Below the pieces are notes generated by a model. It did not search any database. It was not told the origin of the DNA and saw only the letters and a list, made by a program, of their open reading frames with translations. The translations under genes were made by a program, and so were the position numbers. This document shows positions 50,116 through 63,486 of a stretch of 64,000 nucleotides of DNA, piece by piece. How positions within the stretch are numbered: position 1 is the first letter of the stretch; each line of letters begins with the position of its first letter. Origin of the DNA: Escherichia phage ECD7; the sequence record NC_041936.1; one strand, written 5' to 3'.

Positions 50116-50712
50116 TTATTTGGTAGTACCGTCAATAAAATGTTTACGGCACACAGAGACATATTTATCCTCTGCACCAACTTCTATTTGAGCACCATCG
50201 CGAATAACATTACCCTCTTTATCTACACGAAGGACCATTGTTGCTTTCTTGCCACAATGACAAATACCCTTCATTTCGACCAGTTTATCAGCAAATGCCA
50301 TTAATGCCGCAGATCCTTCAAATAGATTGCCCTGAAAGTCGGTGCGAAGGCCATAGCACAGTACAGGGATATTTGCATCATCGACAAGCGCACACAAGCC
50401 TAAAACATGCTCTTTAGTCATAAATTGGGCTTCATCTACAAATACAGCATCAGGACGCCATCGATCCGGTCTACGCTTACCTAACGATTCACGATAAACC
50501 AAATCGAAAAGATCATCCGATTTAGTGAAGGTGATCGCTGGAGCACTTAGACCAATTCGGGAAACAACTTCACTTTCTGAATCTCGATTATCAATCGCTG
50601 GCTTAAGAATTAATACTCGCATATCACGTTCGGTATAGTTATAAGCACTTTGTAACAGAGAAGTTGATTTGCCAGCGTTCATAGATGCATAGTAGAAATA
50701 TAGTTGCGCCAT
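50116..50712 (-). CDS. tk: thymidine kinase
   Basis: YFYYASMNAGKST Walker A, Zn-ribbon CxxC...CxxH at C-terminus; 198 aa. Confidence 0.9.
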   Translation of the reverse strand: MAQLYFYYASMNAGKSTSLLQSAYNYTERDMRVLILKPAIDNRDSESEVVSRIGLSAPAITFTKSDDLFDLVYRESLGKRRPDRWRPDAVFVDEAQFMTKEHVLGLCALVDDANIPVLCYGLRTDFQGNLFEGSAALMAFADKLVEMKGICHCGKKATMVLRVDKEGNVIRDGAQIEVGAEDKYVSVCRKHFIDGTTK

Positions 50713-51005
50713 TAATTAATCTCCAAAAATCCAGCAAGACCTAAACCGATATAAGTCCAGATACAAAGGAAAAAGAAGCAAACACCCATAGCAAAGATAA
50801 ATCCGCGTAGTGTCTTTGGATAACCTACCCAATATTCCCGACCATCTTCTAACCGGATCAACTTATTGCCTTGCGAGTCCATATCAACTACAACATGTTT
50901 ATTTCGAGATTGCAATAGATATTGTTTTACAATCTCTACACCCGCCATAATAACAATAACGAAAATAAAAGTCCACACAACAAGATTAATGATAGTCTCA
51001 AGCAT
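50712..51005 (-). CDS. hypothetical membrane protein (two predicted TM helices)
   Basis: 97 aa, hydrophobic N- and C-terminal segments. Confidence 0.45.
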   Translation of the reverse strand: MLETIINLVVWTFIFVIVIMAGVEIVKQYLLQSRNKHVVVDMDSQGNKLIRLEDGREYWVGYPKTLRGFIFAMGVCFFFLCIWTYIGLGLAGFLEIN

Positions 51006-51240
51006 TTTCTATCACCTCCACCCAATCAGGTGTTTCCTGAAAGACTCCTTCACCTTCATGATGGTCGCAACCTTTATTGCTGCAATACATCCACCAATCC
51101 CACATTCCCCACGGTAAACGCTGCATATCGTCGTTACAGCAAGTGAAGATGATAGGCCAACCACATCTACCACAACGGCAGTTTTCCTTCATGTGTGCGG
51201 TATTAGGCTTCTTCATAGATGACTCCAATATAATCGACAT
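50998..51240 (-). CDS. Cys-rich small protein
   Basis: CRCGRCGW...CCND...CSNKGCDHHEGEG. Confidence 0.4.
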   Translation of the reverse strand: MSIILESSMKKPNTAHMKENCRCGRCGWPIIFTCCNDDMQRLPWGMWDWWMYCSNKGCDHHEGEGVFQETPDWVEVIENA

Positions 51241-51407
51241 TTACATTTAGGGCAATGCGGTTCTTTAATATAATACCCGTCTGTCTTTGGAACACTAACA
51301 GGAGCGGTTTTTATATTGTATTCAGTGAAACAACGAAAACAAGTTACGTTTTCTACAGACTGACGTTTCACCCAATCACCGGAATATAGATCATTTTTAT
51401 TTGTCAT
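51213..51407 (-). CDS. zinc-ribbon-like small protein
   Basis: CFRCF...CPKCKC; probable internal ATG at 51405-51407. Confidence 0.4.
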   Translation of the reverse strand: MTNKNDLYSGDWVKRQSVENVTCFRCFTEYNIKTAPVSVPKTDGYYIKEPHCPKCKCRLYWSHL

Positions 51408-51852
51408 ATTCAACCACCACAATGTTAATGTCTGGAGTAGCAATATTAATGATCTCTTCTACACATTCCCACTCAAGGCCACCGATACCGCAACCGATTT
51501 TAGGAATATAGAAAGGCTGTATAGCACCCTCAAAAACATCATTGAGAGACTCAAATCCTTTCAGGATAGCACCATATTCAGCATTTGGACCCGGTCGGAA
51601 TTTGGTATAGAGATTCACCCCGCACCAGTTATAACCATTAACTTGATGCGTCCAGACACTAAACCCACCCAGCTTTTCGACCTTACCGCGAGAAGTTTGC
51701 TTGTCAATCTCTAACGCTTGCGGGAACTCTTTCGCGATCTTCGCAGCAATACCAGCGCCCATAGTATGAAAACAATTACAACCATGAATTAAATGACCGT
51801 TTCCTTGTTTAAACAGGGCGATGAGATCGCCCTTTACAGTATCAATAATCAT
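51397..51852 (-). CDS. macro-domain protein (ADP-ribose binding/processing)
   Basis: GDLIAL...LIHGCNCFHTMGAGIAAKIAKEFP and later IGCGIGGL resemble the macro-domain ligand-binding loops. Confidence 0.65.
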   Translation of the reverse strand: MIIDTVKGDLIALFKQGNGHLIHGCNCFHTMGAGIAAKIAKEFPQALEIDKQTSRGKVEKLGGFSVWTHQVNGYNWCGVNLYTKFRPGPNAEYGAILKGFESLNDVFEGAIQPFYIPKIGCGIGGLEWECVEEIINIATPDINIVVVEYDK

Positions 51853-51867
51853 AATATAAACCTCTCA

Positions 51868-52227
51868 TTAGTCACGGGAAGACAACCCAGCCATAAAACG
51901 GCTTAACAGTGTGTCGCGATAAGCAAAGCATAATTGCTTATCAGGAGCAGTATCACACAAGTTGCGTTTTGTTTTAGCAAAGCTGGCAATACTCAGATCC
52001 CATGCTCGATTTTTTCGTTTTTCGTCTCGACCTTGTTTGTATGCTTCATCAAGTTCGAGCGCGATAAAATCACTACACATGTTATCATCATCACAGAAAG
52101 TTTTAATGATCTTTTTGTTGATCTCAAATCCTTTGTATTCAAACTTTGGATAAGGGCGCTCATTACTAGCAAGCGCACCAGCAGAGAACATCATAGCAAT
52201 CATAGCAATTATTGTCAACTTTTTCAT
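51868..52227 (-). CDS. secreted/periplasmic Cys-containing protein
   Basis: Signal peptide MKKLTIIAMIAMMFSAGALA; four Cys in mature part. Confidence 0.5.
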   Translation of the reverse strand: MKKLTIIAMIAMMFSAGALASNERPYPKFEYKGFEINKKIIKTFCDDDNMCSDFIALELDEAYKQGRDEKRKNRAWDLSIASFAKTKRNLCDTAPDKQLCFAYRDTLLSRFMAGLSSRD

Positions 52228-52234
52228 ATATTCC

Positions 52235-52825
52235 TCAATAGCGTTTAGTCTTAAGAATGCCTTTACTCTTTAGATGGTTAGCCTTTTTTAGTACGTCATC
52301 AGCATAACCTAATCCGGCTTTATAGTTCCATCCAGCATTGTAAGAAGCTAGCGCGAGTCTGATATTACCGTTTCGAATATCCAGCCAGTATGCTAACTCA
52401 TCCATCGCGTAGAATGCAGAAACCTCGCGATTCATGATAAAGTTGATAGTCTGGCGATCACTCATTTTAACACCGCGCTTTGCATTTTTCGCTTTCACCG
52501 TTTTAAGGTAATTTTGAAATAATCCATAAGCATGATGATTTTTCTTTGGTGCTAAGTTTGCACCCGCGCTTGATTCTTGCCATGCGATACCCGCCAGGAT
52601 GTGACCTAAACCCTTTCCGTTATAGCGAATATTCGGATGGTACTTTTTCAACTTACCGCTTTTCTCAAATTGCTCGCCGTATTGATAGGCGAAATGTAAA
52701 TTATCTAGTTGGTGTGCTGTAAAGTTGTCTATCGGCGCTTTTTTGATCGGTGCGCTAGTCGATGCGTGTGTAGCACCAACGGCTAGTGACAGACTCAATA
52801 CTATCGCTTTTAGAACTTTTAACAT
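52235..52825 (-). CDS. lytic transglycosylase (SLT domain) with Sec signal peptide
   Basis: Signal peptide MLKVLKAIVLSLSLAVGATHA; SLT motifs AWQESS, YGLFQ, ASYNAGW. Confidence 0.75.
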   Translation of the reverse strand: MLKVLKAIVLSLSLAVGATHASTSAPIKKAPIDNFTAHQLDNLHFAYQYGEQFEKSGKLKKYHPNIRYNGKGLGHILAGIAWQESSAGANLAPKKNHHAYGLFQNYLKTVKAKNAKRGVKMSDRQTINFIMNREVSAFYAMDELAYWLDIRNGNIRLALASYNAGWNYKAGLGYADDVLKKANHLKSKGILKTKRY

Positions 52826-52859
52826 TAATTTCTCCTGTTTGGCTTAACTTTCTGATTTC

Positions 52860-52890
52860 ATAATATAGCCCTATCACCAGAAAGTCAAGC
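52860..52890 (-). promoter_or_regulatory. sigma70-type early promoter driving the SLT operon
   Basis: Minus: TTGACT-17nt-TATTAT then CAGGAGAAATTA-ATG. Confidence 0.55.
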
Positions 52891-52911
52891 ATTATTTTTA
52901 ACCAATTTCCA

Positions 52912-53334
52912 TTATTGGTCTACCTTCAAAACAACCGCCGACATTTTACCCGCCAGTCGTTTTGGATTCTCTATAATCATTCGGCAGCATAGACCGTGAT
53001 ATGGCTTACCCTCTTCGATTAGATCTACTGTCATCCCGATCCACATGTTACCATCAGTAATTTCTAATCGATTAGGTCGGTTTTCCATTTTCAGGAAGTC
53101 GAAGATCTCCGGCAAACGAGTTTCTATCTTATTGAATAGTTCCATTGTCTTATGTTCATCGATATGACGATCGGTTAGACGGTCGATCATATGCGGACTA
53201 AAGCGAATGAAAATATACTCGCCGTAACCATCATTCAAGCACTTTTCTTTGATCTGCGCATTGGTTTTGCGCATTTCGGTTTCGAAGAATCTACGCAGCT
53301 TACTACGGCGAACATGTACGTTAATTGTTTCCAT
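52912..53334 (-). CDS. regB: RegB site-specific endoribonuclease
   Basis: VHVRRSKLRRFFE, RLEITDGNMWIGMTV, CRMIIENPKRLAGK resemble T4 RegB; ATG 53332-53334. Confidence 0.85.
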   Translation of the reverse strand: METINVHVRRSKLRRFFETEMRKTNAQIKEKCLNDGYGEYIFIRFSPHMIDRLTDRHIDEHKTMELFNKIETRLPEIFDFLKMENRPNRLEITDGNMWIGMTVDLIEEGKPYHGLCCRMIIENPKRLAGKMSAVVLKVDQ

Positions 53335-53338
53335 TTTA

Positions 53339-53674
53339 TTATCCTTTCTTAAACAAATTGCGAATCCAGTATACAAACGGGATCTCTTTAAACTTGAATT
53401 TCTCTATAGTTAATTCTTTAGTAGCAAGATGAATACCATAAGCATCATGTGTCACGATATGCCATTTTCTATAGTCCAAATGTGAACAACCGTCTGGATC
53501 TAGGTTAATAAGAGTTTCTCGCTCACTAGGATTATTTTTCCACAATTTTGTAATAGGATCGCACATAATTCGACCTAGCGTACCATGAATAATCTCACAA
53601 CGGTAAAGTTTTCCAGCAGTGAGATAGGCGCACCCGTCATAGTCGGTATAAACAAACACTTCTTTAACACTCAT
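53339..53674 (-). CDS. small paralog-family protein (GC[SA]HL..W motif)
   Basis: Internal ATG with GGAGTA SD; ...DPDGCSHLDYRKWHIV. Confidence 0.45.
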   Translation of the reverse strand: MSVKEVFVYTDYDGCAYLTAGKLYRCEIIHGTLGRIMCDPITKLWKNNPSERETLINLDPDGCSHLDYRKWHIVTHDAYGIHLATKELTIEKFKFKEIPFVYWIRNLFKKG

Positions 53675-53696
53675 TTTAATACTCCTTTGTTTCGAT

Positions 53697-53732
53697 GGGG
53701 GTATATTACTACCCCCGTTTTGTTGTGTCAAC
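53697..53732 (-). promoter_or_regulatory. sigma70-type early promoter (PeSL-like, GGGGGTA stem-loop)
   Basis: Minus: TTGACA-17nt-TAATAT. Confidence 0.55.
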
Positions 53733-53992
53733 TACTTTTTCAAGATTTTTTTAATTGCGTTCCAAAGACCTTTATTCTCAGGTTGTTTTGGTTCTTCGAT
53801 CAGTGTCCATGTTCGACCGTCTAAGTGTGCACAATTTTTAAGACAAATAAAAATCTGGTGTCCATTATCATCACGGATATAACCACTATTCGCAAATCTT
53901 TCATGTGGTGTATATTCATACAGTGTATTTGGTGTAATATACTTGCGGTTACTATAAGGTGTCATTACATATTTCATGGTACTAACTCCCAT
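53732..53992 (-). CDS. small paralog-family protein
   Basis: ...CLKNCAHLDGRTWTLIEEP. Confidence 0.45.
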   Translation of the reverse strand: MGVSTMKYVMTPYSNRKYITPNTLYEYTPHERFANSGYIRDDNGHQIFICLKNCAHLDGRTWTLIEEPKQPENKGLWNAIKKILKK

Positions 53993-54168
53993 TTATCACC
54001 GCGAAGATGAGAACATCCACCATCAAGAAGGATCGTAATACGAAACCCCGCATCATCTTCAATATACCCGATTGTCGGTGGATTTTCGTCGTCTCGTGCC
54101 GGGGTAAAATCATACATCTTTCCCGGTGTGATATCATTGCCTTTATTGCTATTGGTATAAACTTGCAT
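53974..54168 (-). CDS. small paralog-family protein
   Basis: ...LLDGGCSHLRGDKWELVP. Confidence 0.45.
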   Translation of the reverse strand: MQVYTNSNKGNDITPGKMYDFTPARDDENPPTIGYIEDDAGFRITILLDGGCSHLRGDKWELVP

Positions 54169-54189
54169 TTTCTTAATCTCCTATATTAA

Positions 54190-54888
54190 CTAACCACGGG
54201 TATAGTGTTCCAGAACAACTGTCAGATGAATATATTCTAATAGATCTTTCCAAAAGTCAACATCTGGTTCTTCCGGCATACCGTTTTTCTTTGCCTCTTC
54301 ACGCGCGAGTTTAACACGCTCGTAGAGGTCTTTCAATTCTTCCCGCACATTATCAAATGTTCTTTCTCCTAACTTACACGCTAAAATCGAAGAACGTCGT
54401 GCGAGCGGGAATTGTAGATCACCTGTCTGGTAGATTTCAAGTAGCTGATAACCAACACGCAGAGCATGAGAAAGATCTTTCCAGTTACTGAAATACTTTT
54501 CCGATTTGGCTACCTGTTTCTTGAGATAACCAGACAAACCCCACATACCAACATGATAGAATTTATCGCGATGTGTTCGGATGTATTCCCATTCTCTGGA
54601 GGATTCGATCAACATGTTACTAGGCGCGTGCACCATGTCAATAGCGCCGATATCGCCTTTACATGCCAGATTGATAAACCGTTTTAGACTGAACATATTA
54701 ACGTCAATATCGTCTTTGGTGTTCTTGATCCCTTGACCGCTAGTGCTTTGATCATAGTGTTCTTTCATCGATCCTAAGATAATTTCTTTCGCAGTCGGAA
54801 CAAAGATACCACGATAATCTTTATCTGAATTTTCAGTATCAAGGCCGTATAAGTGAGATCCGAAGACCATTTTAACCATTGTATGCAT
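54190..54888 (-). CDS. Pol-beta superfamily nucleotidyltransferase, unknown substrate
   Basis: FGSHLYGLDTENSDKDY fits the G[GS]x9-13DxD NTase motif; 232 aa. Confidence 0.6.
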   Translation of the reverse strand: MHTMVKMVFGSHLYGLDTENSDKDYRGIFVPTAKEIILGSMKEHYDQSTSGQGIKNTKDDIDVNMFSLKRFINLACKGDIGAIDMVHAPSNMLIESSREWEYIRTHRDKFYHVGMWGLSGYLKKQVAKSEKYFSNWKDLSHALRVGYQLLEIYQTGDLQFPLARRSSILACKLGERTFDNVREELKDLYERVKLAREEAKKNGMPEEPDVDFWKDLLEYIHLTVVLEHYTRG

Positions 54889-54933
54889 AATTAAACCCTC
54901 AGTTGATTAAGAGATTGCATCATATCATCATAA

Positions 54934-54963
54934 AACGAAAAAGCCAACCCTTTTCGGATTGGC
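54934..54963 (-). terminator. intrinsic terminator after the GrcA-like gene
   Basis: Minus: GCCAAUCC-gaaaag-GGUUGGC then UUUUUCGUUUU. Confidence 0.6.
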
Positions 54964-54974
54964 TTGATGAAAAA

Positions 54975-55391
54975 TTAGAGAGATTCGGTAAAGGTACGCG
55001 CGATAACGTCACGCTGCTGGTCTGGAGTCAGACTATTGAAGCGCACTGCGTAACCAGAAACGCGAATTGTAAGCTGCGGGTACTTCTCAGGATGTTCAAC
55101 AGCGTCCAGCAACATTTCTCGTAACAATACGTTAACATTCAAATGCTGACCACCTTCGACAACCGGAGCACCATTATCTACAATGACAGGACGGAAGCTA
55201 GTTGTGTGCAGTGCCAGCGAATCGACGTCTTCTGCGGTGATCACATGGTCTTCTGCGAAAGTTTTACTAACAATTACTTTAGCGCCGATCAGTGCTTTCG
55301 GTTCGGATACCAGAATCATAGGCGCGAAGTGTCCACCAATAATAGTACCTTTATGCTCACCTTTCATGATTTGAATTGCTTTAAATTCCAT
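54975..55391 (-). CDS. autonomous glycyl radical cofactor (GrcA/YfiD-like)
   Basis: C-terminal [12 protein letters not shown]...[34 protein letters not shown] nearly identical to enterobacterial GrcA. Confidence 0.85.
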
Positions 55392-56074: not shown

Positions 56075-56464
56075 TTATTTTGGATCTGGGTATTTGCTGT
56101 GTGGTAGCTGAAAATGAACACCGTCTTTAAACGATACCCAATCCCCACCCCATTCAACAGAAACACCCAATTCTCGACCAGCTTGTTTAAATGCATCCGC
56201 GATCATGCGGTAGTATTTCATGTTCCATGTATCCTTATCTTTCGGATACGCTACAACGTCAACCGCTAAACCGTGAAGATGACGAGATTTCATAGTCTTA
56301 GATTTACCTTCCGCAACATATTTCTTTTGCGTTTCTAGACTACGTACACCTTCCGTAATACCAAAATCGACCGGAGTCAGTTCTAATGCACGATGAACGA
56401 CTTTTACCAGATCAGGATGCACACCAACAAGCCGATCTTTGCTTCTTTGAGATAATTTAAACAT
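56075..56464 (-). CDS. endolysin, L-alanyl-D-glutamate peptidase (peptidase M15-like)
   Basis: SRHLHGLAVDV and DGVHFQL zinc-ligand motifs; 129 aa; occupies the T4 e (lysozyme) neighbourhood. Confidence 0.8.
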   Translation of the reverse strand: MFKLSQRSKDRLVGVHPDLVKVVHRALELTPVDFGITEGVRSLETQKKYVAEGKSKTMKSRHLHGLAVDVVAYPKDKDTWNMKYYRMIADAFKQAGRELGVSVEWGGDWVSFKDGVHFQLPHSKYPDPK

Positions 56465-56493: not shown

Positions 56494-56685
56494 TTAGATT
56501 CCGGCGATCCTGCATATAGTTCTTGTATTAGCACCAATCAGGATCGCATTAACGACAACCATTCCCCAATCAACCCACTGATTATTATAAATGCTAAACC
56601 CGTTTGCAAGACCAAATACAAGCATTCCGGTACACATACTCAGAGCAATAATCAACATCACGGTAAAACCAAATGCAAATCTCAT
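56494..56685 (-). CDS. small hydrophobic membrane protein
   Basis: 63 aa, mostly hydrophobic. Confidence 0.4.
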   Translation of the reverse strand: MRFAFGFTVMLIIALSMCTGMLVFGLANGFSIYNNQWVDWGMVVVNAILIGANTRTICRIAGI

Positions 56686-56686
56686 A

Positions 56687-56953
56687 TTATTTTCCTTTTC
56701 TCTGTTTACGTTTATAAAAGTAATACATTACCTCATCGCGTCCGGTGATCCAACATGCTAGGGCGGTAAACAGGTTTACAATTCCCAACACACCTACGGA
56801 TGCGGCGCTGTCAACAGACATAGGAACAGTAAAGGCCATAGCTAACATAGCAACGCCACAAATGACATTAAGCACCATTATAATAAGACCGAAGAAAACC
56901 ATTGTCAATCCTCCCAAATAAGAAAACCAACAATCACGCCAGTGATAAGACAT
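56687..56953 (-). CDS. small hydrophobic membrane protein
   Basis: 88 aa, two hydrophobic helices. Confidence 0.4.
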   Translation of the reverse strand: MSYHWRDCWFSYLGGLTMVFFGLIIMVLNVICGVAMLAMAFTVPMSVDSAASVGVLGIVNLFTALACWITGRDEVMYYFYKRKQRKGK

Positions 56954-57096
56954 GATGCGCCGCTAATAAGACAACCCGCGCCAAGTGATTCCCACCAGAT
57001 CAGAGAAGCGACAATAACACAGAATCCCCATACTACCGCAATCACAACATAGGCAAGGGTCGCCCAAAACATATATTTGTTCATAATAAATCCCAT
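56905..57096 (-). CDS. small hydrophobic membrane protein
   Basis: 63 aa. Confidence 0.35.
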   Translation of the reverse strand: MGFIMNKYMFWATLAYVVIAVVWGFCVIVASLIWWESLGAGCLISGASCLITGVIVGFLIWED

Positions 57097-57476
57097 TCAC
57101 CAAACAAATAAGAAAAAAGCCATATCAACAGAAACGAGGCAATTGATCCGGCAAGCAAAATGATATTAGAGAATCCGCCGTCTATCCAGCGACAAAACAG
57201 AATACGCCAGTATAGAAGCATAAACCCAGTACAAAGCATACTATAAGCAACCATAGAAAGCCCTCCAGTGAGCTAATTTAGTGCGGGTAGTACATTACCC
57301 TACCCGTATTGTTAATCATCGCAGAGCTTCTTCTAGCGCGATCCCAAACCATCCACAAACAACGCCCATACAGACAGCTACAAGAAGATTCATTCTCTCT
57401 TTAGGAATCATTGCAATCATAACAACAACCATACAGAAAGCCATTACCATTGAAGTTAACATTTGTTCAACCATTA

Positions 57477-58089: not shown

Positions 58090-58290
58090 CTAAAATTTGT
58101 TAACGACGAATTGCATAATTAGACTAATCACAAACATTGCAAACCAAGTATAAATGCAACAGATAAAAGCTACATACAATTCAATCTGGTCAGAGAATAC
58201 ACCGGGTAAAAGCATTAGCAAAATAACAACAGTAAAGACGCTAGCGATACCCGCAACAAAACCAATATCATTTTTACTAATCGTCATCAA
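58090..58290 (-). CDS. small hydrophobic membrane protein
   Basis: 66 aa. Confidence 0.4.
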   Translation of the reverse strand: MMTISKNDIGFVAGIASVFTVVILLMLLPGVFSDQIELYVAFICCIYTWFAMFVISLIMQFVVNKF

Positions 58291-58496
58291 GTCACCGTTT
58301 TGTAAAGAAACACAATAAAATCCAAGACAAGAAAGACAGTGTAAATGATCATCGTCAAGACAGTAAACACTGTCAAATTTTCATCGTTAGTTAATTCATA
58401 GTCGCCCATCCATACAATAACAAGATATAGCATTGAAAGAATGGAAGCACCTACGAAGTTAAAAAACATATTCTTGAGCGTCATATTAACAACCAT
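58287..58496 (-). CDS. small hydrophobic membrane protein
   Basis: 69 aa. Confidence 0.4.
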   Translation of the reverse strand: MVVNMTLKNMFFNFVGASILSMLYLVIVWMGDYELTNDENLTVFTVLTMIIYTVFLVLDFIVFLYKTVT

Positions 58497-58668
58497 CGCG
58501 GCTTAAGTCAACAACAATTGCATACAGCATAATGAATATGCTAGCAGATCCGAGAATCAATGCACCCTCACATTTTGAAACTCGCTCATCAAAATGTAAC
58601 ATTATCCATCCGAGGATGTTAAAGGCGCAGACCGCGCCTATGTTCGCTAACCAATTAATCTTTTTCAT
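58486..58668 (-). CDS. small hydrophobic membrane protein
   Basis: 60 aa. Confidence 0.35.
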   Translation of the reverse strand: MKKINWLANIGAVCAFNILGWIMLHFDERVSKCEGALILGSASIFIMLYAIVVDLSRDGC

Positions 58669-60237: not shown

Positions 60238-60456
60238 TTATTTATATCGCTTTCTCTCGCGACGTTTTTGATCTTCTTCCTTGATAGAGTTAAACGCATC
60301 AAAAAGACACATGACACTGATAATGAACATAACCGTATTTTCTACGATATCCCACGGCTTCGCATCAGTACAGATCCCCCAAACGGTAAGAAATGCAAAT
60401 AGTGCAGAAGAGATCACAAGCATGATACTTGCTAAGATATAAAAAGTCATTTTCAT
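60238..60456 (-). CDS. small hydrophobic membrane protein
   Basis: 72 aa. Confidence 0.4.
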   Translation of the reverse strand: MKMTFYILASIMLVISSALFAFLTVWGICTDAKPWDIVENTVMFIISVMCLFDAFNSIKEEDQKRRERKRYK

Positions 60457-60647
60457 GGTTTTACCTCAATTCTTCGATATTCATCACACATCCACGCAGT
60501 AAGCAAGAATCCCAGCACATAAGCAACAAAATACGTTAATGCTTCTTCTGGTTTCGTGCTATGTATCATCAGTAAACCAGCGAGAACGGTCTTAACAATT
60601 ACATTTAAAATAATTAGCCACGCAAATAATTTCATCGTTTGCCCCAT
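60453..60647 (-). CDS. small hydrophobic membrane protein
   Basis: 64 aa. Confidence 0.4.
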   Translation of the reverse strand: MGQTMKLFAWLIILNVIVKTVLAGLLMIHSTKPEEALTYFVAYVLGFLLTAWMCDEYRRIEVKP

Positions 60648-60871
60648 TTCGGTCGAGTCTTTTCAAACTTATACATTACGTAACAATCTCGAATCATCCA
60701 CGTAACAAGAGCACCAGTCAACACAGACAACACACAGAAGAAGTAAAACGGTCCGGTTGCATTATCAACATGAGCAAGCCATGTAAAGAAAACACATGCT
60801 AAGAATGTAAAGAACATCATAAAACACAAGAAAGCAAAATATTTTATGCTACTCATAGCGCCACCATACAA
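60632..60871 (-). CDS. small hydrophobic membrane protein
   Basis: 79 aa. Confidence 0.4.
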   Translation of the reverse strand: MYGGAMSSIKYFAFLCFMMFFTFLACVFFTWLAHVDNATGPFYFFCVLSVLTGALVTWMIRDCYVMYKFEKTRPKWGKR

Positions 60872-60959
60872 CAGATCATAAGAAAACCCAACGCAATAAG
60901 AATTGCATCAAATTTAGTGAACTCCGGTCCACCTATCAACATCATTCGTTCCTGTTCAT

Positions 60960-61202
60960 TCATAGATCACAGAGCCATCTGAAAGCACCACATAAAGCGA
61001 GCAGAATACTAGGTATAAACGAGACTAAAACAAGTTGGCAAAAATCATCTAAGGTAACACCGGAATAGCTACCTACTGTAACAACACCGATCATCAGACA
61101 CAGAAAGAAAACAAATGCAATCAGAAACAAAGTATTGCTAAACAGTTTAGTGATCATTAGACACCCCACGACGATCAATTTCAAAAACTTTTTTATCATC
61201 AA
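60960..61202 (-). CDS. small hydrophobic membrane protein
   Basis: 80 aa. Confidence 0.4.
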   Translation of the reverse strand: MMIKKFLKLIVVGCLMITKLFSNTLFLIAFVFFLCLMIGVVTVGSYSGVTLDDFCQLVLVSFIPSILLALCGAFRWLCDL

Positions 61203-61350: not shown

Positions 61351-61368
61351 ATTATCACCTTATTTGCT

Positions 61369-61527
61369 AATCGCTAAACCCAATCCGAAGAGAGCACCCG
61401 ATGCTACAGTATACACGAAAGTTTCAAAGGCAGTAAAGATATCTAAGCCACCAGCTAACAGAGTTGCAGTAAACAGAGTACCAGCTACGAACATAAAAGT
61501 TTTACCGATAAATTTCATCTTGATTCT
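61369..61527 (-). CDS. small hydrophobic membrane protein (52 aa)
   Basis: Hand-translated MKFIGKTFMFVAGTLFTATLLAGGLDIF...; below track cutoff. Confidence 0.3.
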
Positions 61528-61584: not shown

Positions 61585-62028
61585 TTAAGAAAATTTTACT
61601 TCGTCTACAATGTCTTTCATGACATTGATTTCCATTCCGGTCAGAACACGTTGGAACATGTGCTGAACATACGCTTTCAGGTATTCATTTGACGGCTTGC
61701 TATCAAAAGTCTTTTTAGTGTAGTAGTCATCACCGAAAGCTACTGTAATTACATTTTCGTCGTCATTCCAAGCGATATAAGCAAATTTGCCGTTATCCCA
61801 GAAGCGAGCACTAATTGCTACTTTTGTTGAATCGAATCCTAATTCGCTGTGAGATTCAAGAACTACTTGCGTGCCAGTTTCTTTATGAATGTAGTAGCGG
61901 GATACTAAGTCAAAGTTACGGGTGTAGTGACATTCGAATTTATCTTTAAACATCATCATTTTGATTCTCCTAAGTGTGTTTCGTTTCGATATGTGTATTA
62001 TTCTATAGTCGTTTATGGTTGTCAACAC
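61585..62028 (-). CDS. hypothetical protein
   Basis: 147-aa ORF upstream of the Acb1-like gene. Confidence 0.45.
   Translation of the reverse strand: MLTTINDYRIIHISKRNTLRRIKMMMFKDKFECHYTRNFDLVSRYYIHKETGTQVVLESHSELGFDSTKVAISARFWDNGKFAYIAWNDDENVITVAFGDDYYTKKTFDSKPSNEYLKAYVQHMFQRVLTGMEINVMKDIVDEVKFS
61995..62026 (-). promoter_or_regulatory. sigma70-type early promoter (PeSL-like)
   Basis: Minus: TTGACA-17nt-AATAAT. Confidence 0.5.
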
Positions 62029-62029
62029 C

Positions 62030-62061
62030 TAAAAACAAAAAACCCCGAAAAATTTTCGGGG
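62030..62061 (-). terminator. intrinsic terminator
   Basis: Minus: CCCCGAAAA-u-UUUUCGGGG then UUUUUUGUUUUU. Confidence 0.7.
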
Positions 62062-62068
62062 TATAAAA

Positions 62069-62533
62069 TTACAGTTTGGTCGTCCACTCCAGGTCTAGAT
62101 CTTCGACATACTCATGAGATCGGACAATCTCTAAATCGAACTCTAGGTCAGTGCCAAATTTACGCGCACCAACATCATAAGAAAGCGTGATATGCGGTAC
62201 ATATTCAGGATAATCCCACGTCGCACCTAAAGCAGTGCCGATATCGTGTCTGAATTGCATGTAGTCGCTTTCAAATGCCAACACAAGCGCATTAGTACCG
62301 GATTGAGTTTCAAACACTTTCAGATGACACAGAGAGCCTAAAAACTTTTCACCCTCTTCCGGGATAAACGGAACATAGACACGAGAATATAAGATAGTGC
62401 TATGCAGTTTATCACGAGGAACAGCATTAGGCAGATCGTAGAACTCCTGCAATTTTTCAATGCGGTCTAGTGTATCCTCAGTGAATTTAACCGCAGCATA
62501 TGTACCTTTAACGGATTCTCGAAACGGGGTCAT
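62069..62533 (-). CDS. 2H phosphoesterase-family protein, Acb1 (gene 57B)-like candidate
   Basis: Two H-x-T-x motifs (KLHSTILY, VPHITLSY); sits next to 57A and gene 1 as T4 57B does; ATG 62531-62533. Confidence 0.55.
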   Translation of the reverse strand: MTPFRESVKGTYAAVKFTEDTLDRIEKLQEFYDLPNAVPRDKLHSTILYSRVYVPFIPEEGEKFLGSLCHLKVFETQSGTNALVLAFESDYMQFRHDIGTALGATWDYPEYVPHITLSYDVGARKFGTDLEFDLEIVRSHEYVEDLDLEWTTKL

Positions 62534-62535
62534 AA

Positions 62536-62802
62536 TCAAGCCTCCGTGATCAGTTCTACTTCCTCTTTATCGTCTTCCGCTGCTTCGTCTTTAGGGAGAA
62601 GTGCTTTCACTTCTTCGACAATCGCATCAAGGGAAACAGTGCCGTTTTCGTCTGGCTGAATACCCAGAATGCGTACCAGTTCCATCAATACACGCTCACG
62701 ATCTTTCAGTTGGCCTTCTAAGAATGCGGCCTTTTCTTGAGTGTCAAACAGACGTACTTTCAGGACATTAATCATTTGTTCATGCTGATTGGACATATTC
62801 AC
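62536..62802 (-). CDS. 57A: tail fiber assembly chaperone gp57A-like
   Basis: 88 aa coiled-coil, LKVRLFDTQEKAAFLEGQL resembles T4 gp57A; synteny. Confidence 0.6.
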   Translation of the reverse strand: MNMSNQHEQMINVLKVRLFDTQEKAAFLEGQLKDRERVLMELVRILGIQPDENGTVSLDAIVEEVKALLPKDEAAEDDKEEVELITEA

Positions 62803-62829: not shown

Positions 62830-63486
62830 TTAAATGTTCGCGAGAATCGCGCTTTCAAATTCTTCTAATGTACCATTATTTATGATAATGGTTTCACCGT
62901 CAATAGGCAAAATTCCTTTTTCGGTGGAGTGAGTCGATACAATACCAGTATCACGATGAATATGCAACACCTTAGCACCCATAGAACGCATGAGAGCAAT
63001 TTCAATAGGCTGACGCACATCAACCACTACAAAATACCCTTCTTCATTTTTGCGCTTCATAAACTCATTCACGAAGAGATTACACCAATAAAGCGGATTG
63101 ATCAAGTTAACCATTATATCAGTACCGAGAGTGGTTAACATGAGACGAATAGACCAGACGTTATTATGTTTTTCGCCAATCTCATTAACGACCTTGTAAA
63201 TCTCAGCCAGACGATCACAAGTAAAGGAACTACCGCCATACTTCGAATCTAACATAAGCAGACACTGAATAAACCACTTATGCGCGGTATAGGTATCAAT
63301 ACCTAGATCGGCTTCTCTGTCACGCCCTAACCCGTCAAAGTCAAGATAAGTCAGACCTAAGTCTGGTTGACATTCGCATAAGATTTCTTTGATCGGTGCT
63401 GCCAGTTGATAACTGTGTCCATCAATGATTAACGCGGCAGTGTCTTTTCCTACTCGCTTTTTACCACAAAGTGCAATCAATTTCAT
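62830..63486 (-). CDS. 1: deoxynucleoside monophosphate kinase gp1
   Basis: MKLIALCGKKRVGKDT P-loop, LGTD, VVDVRQ resemble T4 gp1. Confidence 0.88.
   Translation of the reverse strand: MKLIALCGKKRVGKDTAALIIDGHSYQLAAPIKEILCECQPDLGLTYLDFDGLGRDREADLGIDTYTAHKWFIQCLLMLDSKYGGSSFTCDRLAEIYKVVNEIGEKHNNVWSIRLMLTTLGTDIMVNLINPLYWCNLFVNEFMKRKNEEGYFVVVDVRQPIEIALMRSMGAKVLHIHRDTGIVSTHSTEKGILPIDGETIIINNGTLEEFESAILANI

Follow-up and report, generated by a model that had tools for sequence, protein, structure and literature searches.

A gene 57B ortholog of Escherichia phage ECD7 that very probably encodes the anti-CBASS nuclease Acb1

Organization of the acb1 locus

The window considered here is the whole stretch of DNA that was analysed, 64 kb from Escherichia phage ECD7. 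Like phages GEC-3S, Phi1, JSE and RB49, it belongs to the genus Krischvirus of the family Straboviridae. Between positions 61000 and 64000 it is 98.6% identical to GEC-3S, and its identity to Phi1 and JSE is 98%. In this region acb1 is the last cistron of a block of genes, 3-1-57A-57B, which has the gene order of T4 (Table 1). The preliminary description of this DNA had placed the gene at the T4 57B position, next to 57A and gene 1, and the order of the four genes and their common strand bear this out. The overlap or near-overlap of 57B with the end of 57A is also found in both phages.

Reading of the open reading frame and its codons gives an ATG start at 62533 and a TAA stop at 62071-62069. 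The mechanical list of open reading frames makes the frame two codons longer by beginning it at the TTG at 62539. The ATG is to be preferred as the start, because it has a GGAGG sequence 7 nt upstream, gives an N-terminus that matches that of the T4 protein and agrees with the annotated length of 465 nt. Indeed, a 465-nt coding sequence is annotated in five Krischvirus records with an intact frame, including the GEC-3S RefSeq record, Makalu_002, UPWr_E1 and RB49. The TGA stop codon of 57A (62538-62536) lies 2 nt ahead of the acb1 ATG. Because of this short gap, and because the ribosome-binding site of acb1 is located inside 57A, acb1 and 57A are probably coupled in translation.

An intrinsic terminator, whose hairpin begins 6 nt past the acb1 stop codon, closes the block, and a terminator is annotated at the equivalent place in GEC-3S and Makalu_002. 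No late promoter of the T4 type (TATAAATA) was found upstream of 57A and acb1 when the coding strand was searched from 60239 to the end of the window. The only matches upstream of acb1 are to a sigma-70-like consensus and lie within gene 1, so that no acb1 promoter was established in the window; transcription of the gene is presumed.

Table 1. Coordinates of acb1, its sequence elements and other genes of the window
Feature	Position	Strand	Remarks
acb1 (gene 57B ortholog), coding sequence	62069..62533	minus	465 nt including stop, 154 aa
Shine-Dalgarno sequence GGAGG	62541..62545	minus	7 nt upstream of the acb1 ATG, within the end of 57A; sequence reading
First 2H motif, H44-S-T46-I (HSTI, residues 44-47)	62393..62404	minus	codons read directly
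Second 2H motif, H114-I-T116-L (HITL, residues 114-117)	62183..62194	minus	codons read directly
C-terminal lid region, E144 to L154	62072..62104	minus	with E144 (T4 E141) and W150 (T4 W147); alignments
57A, tail-fibre chaperone gene	62536..62802	minus	PHROG 1002, 2.2e-26; Pfam GP57, 27.3 bits; phmmer against T4 57A, 2.3e-07
Gene 1, dNMP kinase	62830..63486	minus	Pfam DNMK, 7.7e-68; tblastn with T4 gp1, 1e-31
Gene 3	from 63502	minus	upstream of gene 1
Intrinsic terminator	62032..62062	minus	9-bp GC-rich stem ACCCCGAAA/TTTCGGGGT, then T-run TTTTTGTTTT; terminator scan
Sigma-70-type (early-type) promoter, near consensus	62025-61997	minus	TTGACA-17-AATAAT; serves the 122-aa ORF after acb1
122-aa ORF	61585-61953	minus	PHROG 15253 (unknown function), 2e-85
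52-aa ORF	61360-61518	–	between the 122-aa ORF and dmd
dmd homolog, 67 aa	61147-61350	minus	Pfam PF17587, E=7.6e-16; annotated dmd in GEC-3S
LPD25-domain protein, 108 aa	58677-59003	minus	Pfam PF18840, 3.3e-14; among small early genes
RlaP-domain protein, 232 aa	54190-54888	minus	Pfam PF10127, 3.4e-14

Assignment to the Acb1 family

The preliminary description had proposed that the protein is an Acb1-like 2H phosphoesterase, on the basis of its position and of the motifs HSTI and HITL, both of which are indeed read from the sequence. The motif pair by itself is weak evidence for Acb1, because 4 of the 123 stop-to-stop reading frames of the window that reach 100 aa contain two Hx[TS] motifs separated by a comparable distance (50-100 aa). 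It is the evidence from profiles, structure and selection that places acb1 beyond chance.

The Pfam model of Acb1 (PF23474) matches the protein with 174.4 bits (cut-off 27, E=1.5e-51) over positions 1-143 of its 144 positions. Among the sequences of the PDB, the sole significant match is the Acb1 of phage FBB1 (7T26/7T27, E=1.8e-43), which is 53% identical over 144 residues. The alignment to T4 gp57B (NP_049750.1), which had been suggested as a check, is also significant: BLASTP aligns the two proteins over their full length with 47% identity (E=3e-47). T4 gp57B is Acb1 itself, the founding member of the family, and it has the same position after genes 3, 1 and 57A.

The "RNA ligase" label that the gene carries in the RefSeq records of GEC-3S, RB49, JSE and Phi1, by way of PHROG 755, which is annotated in the same manner, corresponds to another reading of the protein, as a LigT-like RNA 2',3'-cyclic phosphodiesterase or 2'-5' RNA ligase which acts on RNA ends. 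There is a weak similarity to the Pfam models 2_5_RNA_ligase2 and LigT_PEase, and the 2H fold is common to LigT and to the structural model of the acb1 product described below. However, the scores of these models (19.4 bits for PF13563, with a cut-off of 27, and 14.1 bits for PF02834, with a cut-off of 23.3) stay under their cut-offs and compare with 174.4 bits for Acb1, while the structural match to LigT-type enzymes reaches a TM score of about 0.5 with 11-12% identity, against 0.97 for Acb1. Moreover, T4 57B, which has likewise been labelled "RNA ligase", is a proven cyclic-oligonucleotide nuclease. An action on RNA ends is therefore very improbable, and both the profile scores and the comparison of folds led to the rejection of an RNA ligase or LigT enzyme. 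The record label is misleading, as the LigT-type models do not reach their cut-offs.

The assignment to Acb1 extends to the relatives of the protein. PF23474 is present in all 64 database homologs, and conservation was computed residue by residue on an alignment of 62 of these 64. H44, T46, S50, H114, T116, L117 and Y119 are invariant in the 62 sequences, and G10, T11, Y12, E141, Y142 and E144 are conserved in at least 90% of them.

The gene is not a new finding, as it is already known and filed as Acb1 by sequence. The same 154-aa sequence is that of RB49 gp57B (AAQ15381.1) and of three further NCBI accessions, and the UniRef name for this exact protein is "Anti-CBASS protein Acb1", with 16 Krischvirus entries. 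The labels seen in GenBank and RefSeq are "gp57B conserved hypothetical protein", "hypothetical protein" or "RNA ligase". The labels "RNA ligase" and "hypothetical protein" of the Krischvirus records should be changed to Acb1.

Purifying selection and disrupted alleles

The coding sequence of acb1 in RB49 is 98.5% identical to that of ECD7. All of the nucleotide differences which separate ECD7 acb1 from three other genomes are synonymous (18/18 for Makalu_002, 14/14 for UPWr_E1 and 7/7 for RB49, or 39/39 in total), and tblastn matches with 99% identity or more to the ECD7 protein occur in at least 54 phage records. Since the divergence is synonymous only and the protein is so uniform in these records, acb1 is under strong purifying selection.

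Two public Krischvirus records have a disrupted frame. In phage Cognac (MZ504877.1) a deletion of 1 nt in a run of five T, at nt 191 of the gene, leaves reading frames of 64 and 82 aa, and phage TB34 (OX001802.1) has two separate insertions of 1 nt, at nt 66 and nt 443. Either these frameshifts are genuine losses of function in nature or they stem from errors of sequencing. Phage SAP is 99.96% identical to TB34 (PMC13390438), and in the SAP record the match to acb1 covers the full 465 nt in length.

The frameshifts of Cognac and TB34 would fit a gene that is decaying or non-functional and is retained merely through its position beside 57A. They may be sequencing errors, and such a decay is at odds with the 39 synonymous differences, with the uniformity of the protein across at least 54 records and with the integrity of all catalytic and ligand-contacting residues. 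We give it a next to negligible probability.

Predicted fold and active site

An AlphaFold2 model of the acb1 product, built on the alignment of 62 homologs, has a pLDDT of 91.6 and a pTM of 0.84. Foldseek finds its best match in the PDB with the apo structure of FBB1 Acb1 (7T26; target-normalised TM score of 0.97, rmsd of 0.9 Å over 138 columns). The match to 7T27, the structure of the same enzyme with 3'3'-cGAMP (both from Hobbs et al. 2022, PMC9117128), has a TM score of 0.93 and an rmsd of 2.0 Å. The 2H fold expected in the preliminary description is thus predicted, and it superposes on that of Acb1. The next matches are a 2H phosphodiesterase of Burkholderia phage BCSR5, with a TM score of about 0.7, and the LigT-type enzymes mentioned above. 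Confidence is low only at residues 1-5 and 151-154, and the low confidence at residues 151-154 is consistent with a mobile end of the C-terminal lid.

Hobbs et al. describe T4 Acb1 as an enzyme whose acid-base catalysis relies on an HxT/HxT tetrad composed of H44, T46, H113 and T115 (PMC9117128). The nucleobases stack against the aromatic side chains of Y12, W74, F107 and W147, E141 touches the adenine N6, and a C-terminal lid (residues 145-152) closes over the ligand (PMC9117128). In the alignment, the tetrad of the ECD7 protein is made of H44, T46, H114 and T116. Its stacking aromatics, according to the alignments to FBB1 and T4, are Y12, F74, Y108 and W150, the last of which is contained in the lid segment D145-L154, and E144 corresponds to the adenine-reading E141. 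The nine catalytic and ligand-contacting residues of Acb1 are therefore all retained or conservatively replaced (9/9). The tetrad, Y12, the adenine-reading glutamate and the tryptophan of the lid are conserved between T4 gp57B and the ECD7 protein, and the two replacements, F74 for W74 and Y108 for F107, are identical to the residues of the FBB1 enzyme.

FBB1 is an Erwinia phage, of another genus and with another host than ECD7. Its Acb1 shares with the ECD7 protein the HxT/HxT tetrad, F74, the tyrosine at the position of T4 F107 and the glutamate and tryptophan of the lid. The two proteins differ by one extra residue before the second histidine and two extra residues in the 121-131 loop, all in the ECD7 protein, and by their C-terminal tail, which is EWTTKL in ECD7 and begins with EWSDK in FBB1.

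More distant enzymes have the same superfamily fold and its two catalytic histidines. This is the case of the LigT-type enzymes and of the 2H phosphodiesterase PDE-9 of phage BCSR5 (PDB 9Q2G/9Q2Y), in which the lid is N-terminal, and not C-terminal, and which avoids 2'3'-c-di-AMP (bioRxiv 10.1101/2025.08.21.671373). PDE-9 and the LigT-type enzymes have 11-18% identity to the ECD7 protein and TM scores of 0.5-0.7.

Proposed function in the evasion of CBASS

Taken together, the position of the gene, the family profile and the predicted fold indicate that the product of 62069-62533 is very probably the Krischvirus (RB49-group) ortholog of T4 57B/Acb1, which would cleave cyclic nucleotides and block the activation of CBASS effectors. 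By homology, ECD7 Acb1 most likely functions by cutting cyclic di- and trinucleotides that contain adenosine, without the need for a metal. The enzyme would bind 3'-5'-linked cyclic di- and trinucleotides with at least one adenosine (3'3'-cGAMP, cUA, cAA, cAAA, cAAG), whose bases would be clamped between the aromatics Y12, F74, Y108 and W150. The C-terminal lid would then shut over the ligand, with E144 reading the adenine N6. In the strained ligand, the 2'-OH of the adenosine would attack the 3'-5' bond over the His/Thr tetrad, so that H44, T46, H114 and T116 would cut 3' of the adenosine without a metal, and the linear product would be released via a 2',3'-cyclic phosphate intermediate. The CBASS effectors are expected to stay inactive because the cyclic-nucleotide signal would be linearised and depleted.

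This proposal is modelled on the T4 and FBB1 enzymes. Both 3'3'-cGAMP and cAAA were cleaved by T4 Acb1 and by each of nine other homologs (10/10), and cGG and cA4 are non-substrates of T4 Acb1 (PMC9117128). A T4 phage deleted of acb1 suffers a plating loss of more than 300-fold on CBASS hosts, and a corresponding anti-CBASS phenotype is predicted for ECD7 acb1. In the literature, no biochemical or genetic test of a Krischvirus Acb1 itself was found. The Krischvirus vB_EcoM-G2494 is listed among the 57 phages of the lysate screen of Hobbs et al., which presents the results for single phages in a figure (PMC9117128).

The substrate preference of related viral 2H phosphodiesterases varies, also inside the structural group of T4 Acb1, and few of these enzymes are as promiscuous as the T4 protein (bioRxiv 10.1101/2025.08.21.671373). 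The T4 enzyme also degrades 2'3'-c-di-AMP, and thereby triggers Panoptes (Panoptes paper; bioRxiv 10.1101/2025.08.21.671373). With two pocket aromatics unlike those of T4, the ECD7 protein could be an enzyme of the Acb1 fold that acts in vivo mainly on something other than a CBASS signal, such as 2'3'-c-di-AMP, the cA3 of type III CRISPR or a housekeeping cyclic dinucleotide of the host, and whose anti-CBASS activity is secondary or absent. Against this, the same variant pocket, with F74 and a tyrosine, is that of the FBB1 Acb1 which was crystallised with 3'3'-cGAMP, the adenine-reading E144 is retained, and 3'3'-cGAMP and cAAA were substrates of all ten Acb1 enzymes assayed. The conservation of the pocket speaks against a substantial substrate shift, and we consider a main target other than a CBASS signal to be very unlikely. 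Degradation of CBASS signals remains the preferred function of ECD7 Acb1.

RB49-group coliphages have an acb1 that is intact and strongly conserved, from which resistance to CBASS systems that signal with cGAMP or cAAA is predicted. Panoptes-type decoy systems fire upon the degradation of 2'3'-c-di-AMP and, by analogy with T4 Acb1, the gene may also imply that these phages are sensitive to decoy-signal systems of this kind. The acb1 status of a phage is useful information for picking therapeutic phages against CBASS-positive E. coli.

The "MM02 gp156" of the Panoptes paper, which is Acb1 (MM02-like meaning Bas46-47), was considered as a Krischvirus Acb1 and dropped, because Bas47 is listed as the closest relative of a Mosigvirus (PMC13390438) and the statement thus concerns another genus.

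Other known and possible counter-defence genes

The genes downstream of 57B differ between the two phages. In T4, 57B is followed by ipI and then by a tRNA cluster, whereas in ECD7 it is followed by an unrelated ORF of 122 aa and, further on, by dmd. The 122-aa ORF adjoins the acb1 terminator and fills the slot held by ipI in T4. Its only Pfam match, to T4 gp30.7, is sub-threshold, and a sequence search of the PDB returned no credible match and no solved relative. IPI of T4 is an anti-restriction protein. Dmd is an antitoxin-like inhibitor of the toxins RnlA and LsoA in T4, and its homolog lies about 0.7 kb downstream of acb1 in ECD7, which brings two counter-defence genes close together, unlike in T4. 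It is conceivable, if rather doubtful, that acb1 opens a small anti-defence island of the RB49 group, composed of acb1, the 122-aa ORF, the 52-aa ORF and dmd, in which the 122-aa ORF would perhaps be an undescribed counter-defence protein.

A second anti-CBASS gene, Acb2 (T4 Vs.4), was also sought. Searches of the 64-kb window with Vs.4 by tblastn and phmmer gave only noise, and the Acb2_Tad1_hairpin domain is absent from nine candidate small ORFs of the window, so that the presence of Acb2 in the window was rejected. Likewise, a spread sample of 60 phage records positive for Vs.4 includes none of the 57 Krischvirus records. On the basis of the window and of the sampled records, Acb1 may be the only known anti-CBASS gene of Krischvirus.

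Further features of the window

The tRNA genes that distinguish the T4 region are lacking. In T4 (positions 71000-79000 were compared) a cluster of eight tRNAs lies about 1.4 kb downstream of 57B, and ARAGORN detects none in the 64 kb of the window.

Homologs of regB, vs.1, vs.6, tk and tk.4 are located at 50119-55391. The RlaP-domain protein encoded in this region belongs to a DNA polymerase beta family of nucleotidyltransferases linked to an RNA-repair pathway, and the position of its gene corresponds to T4 vs.3 to vs.5. Between regB and this nucleotidyltransferase gene, three adjacent small ORFs on the minus strand (53339-54168; about 112, 86 and 64 aa) are mutual paralogs with 29-36% identity. 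They have a common C-(S/A)-H-L...W motif, and none of the three has a significant match in Pfam.

The endolysin encoded at 56075-56464 is an M15 peptidase (Pfam PF13539) and not a lysozyme of the T4 e type. The LPD25 domain listed in Table 1 is the large polyvalent protein associated domain 25. At 56494-57254, 58090-58668 and 60238-61202, the minus strand carries several series of tiny ORFs (50-90 aa) whose products are strongly hydrophobic and resemble membrane proteins.
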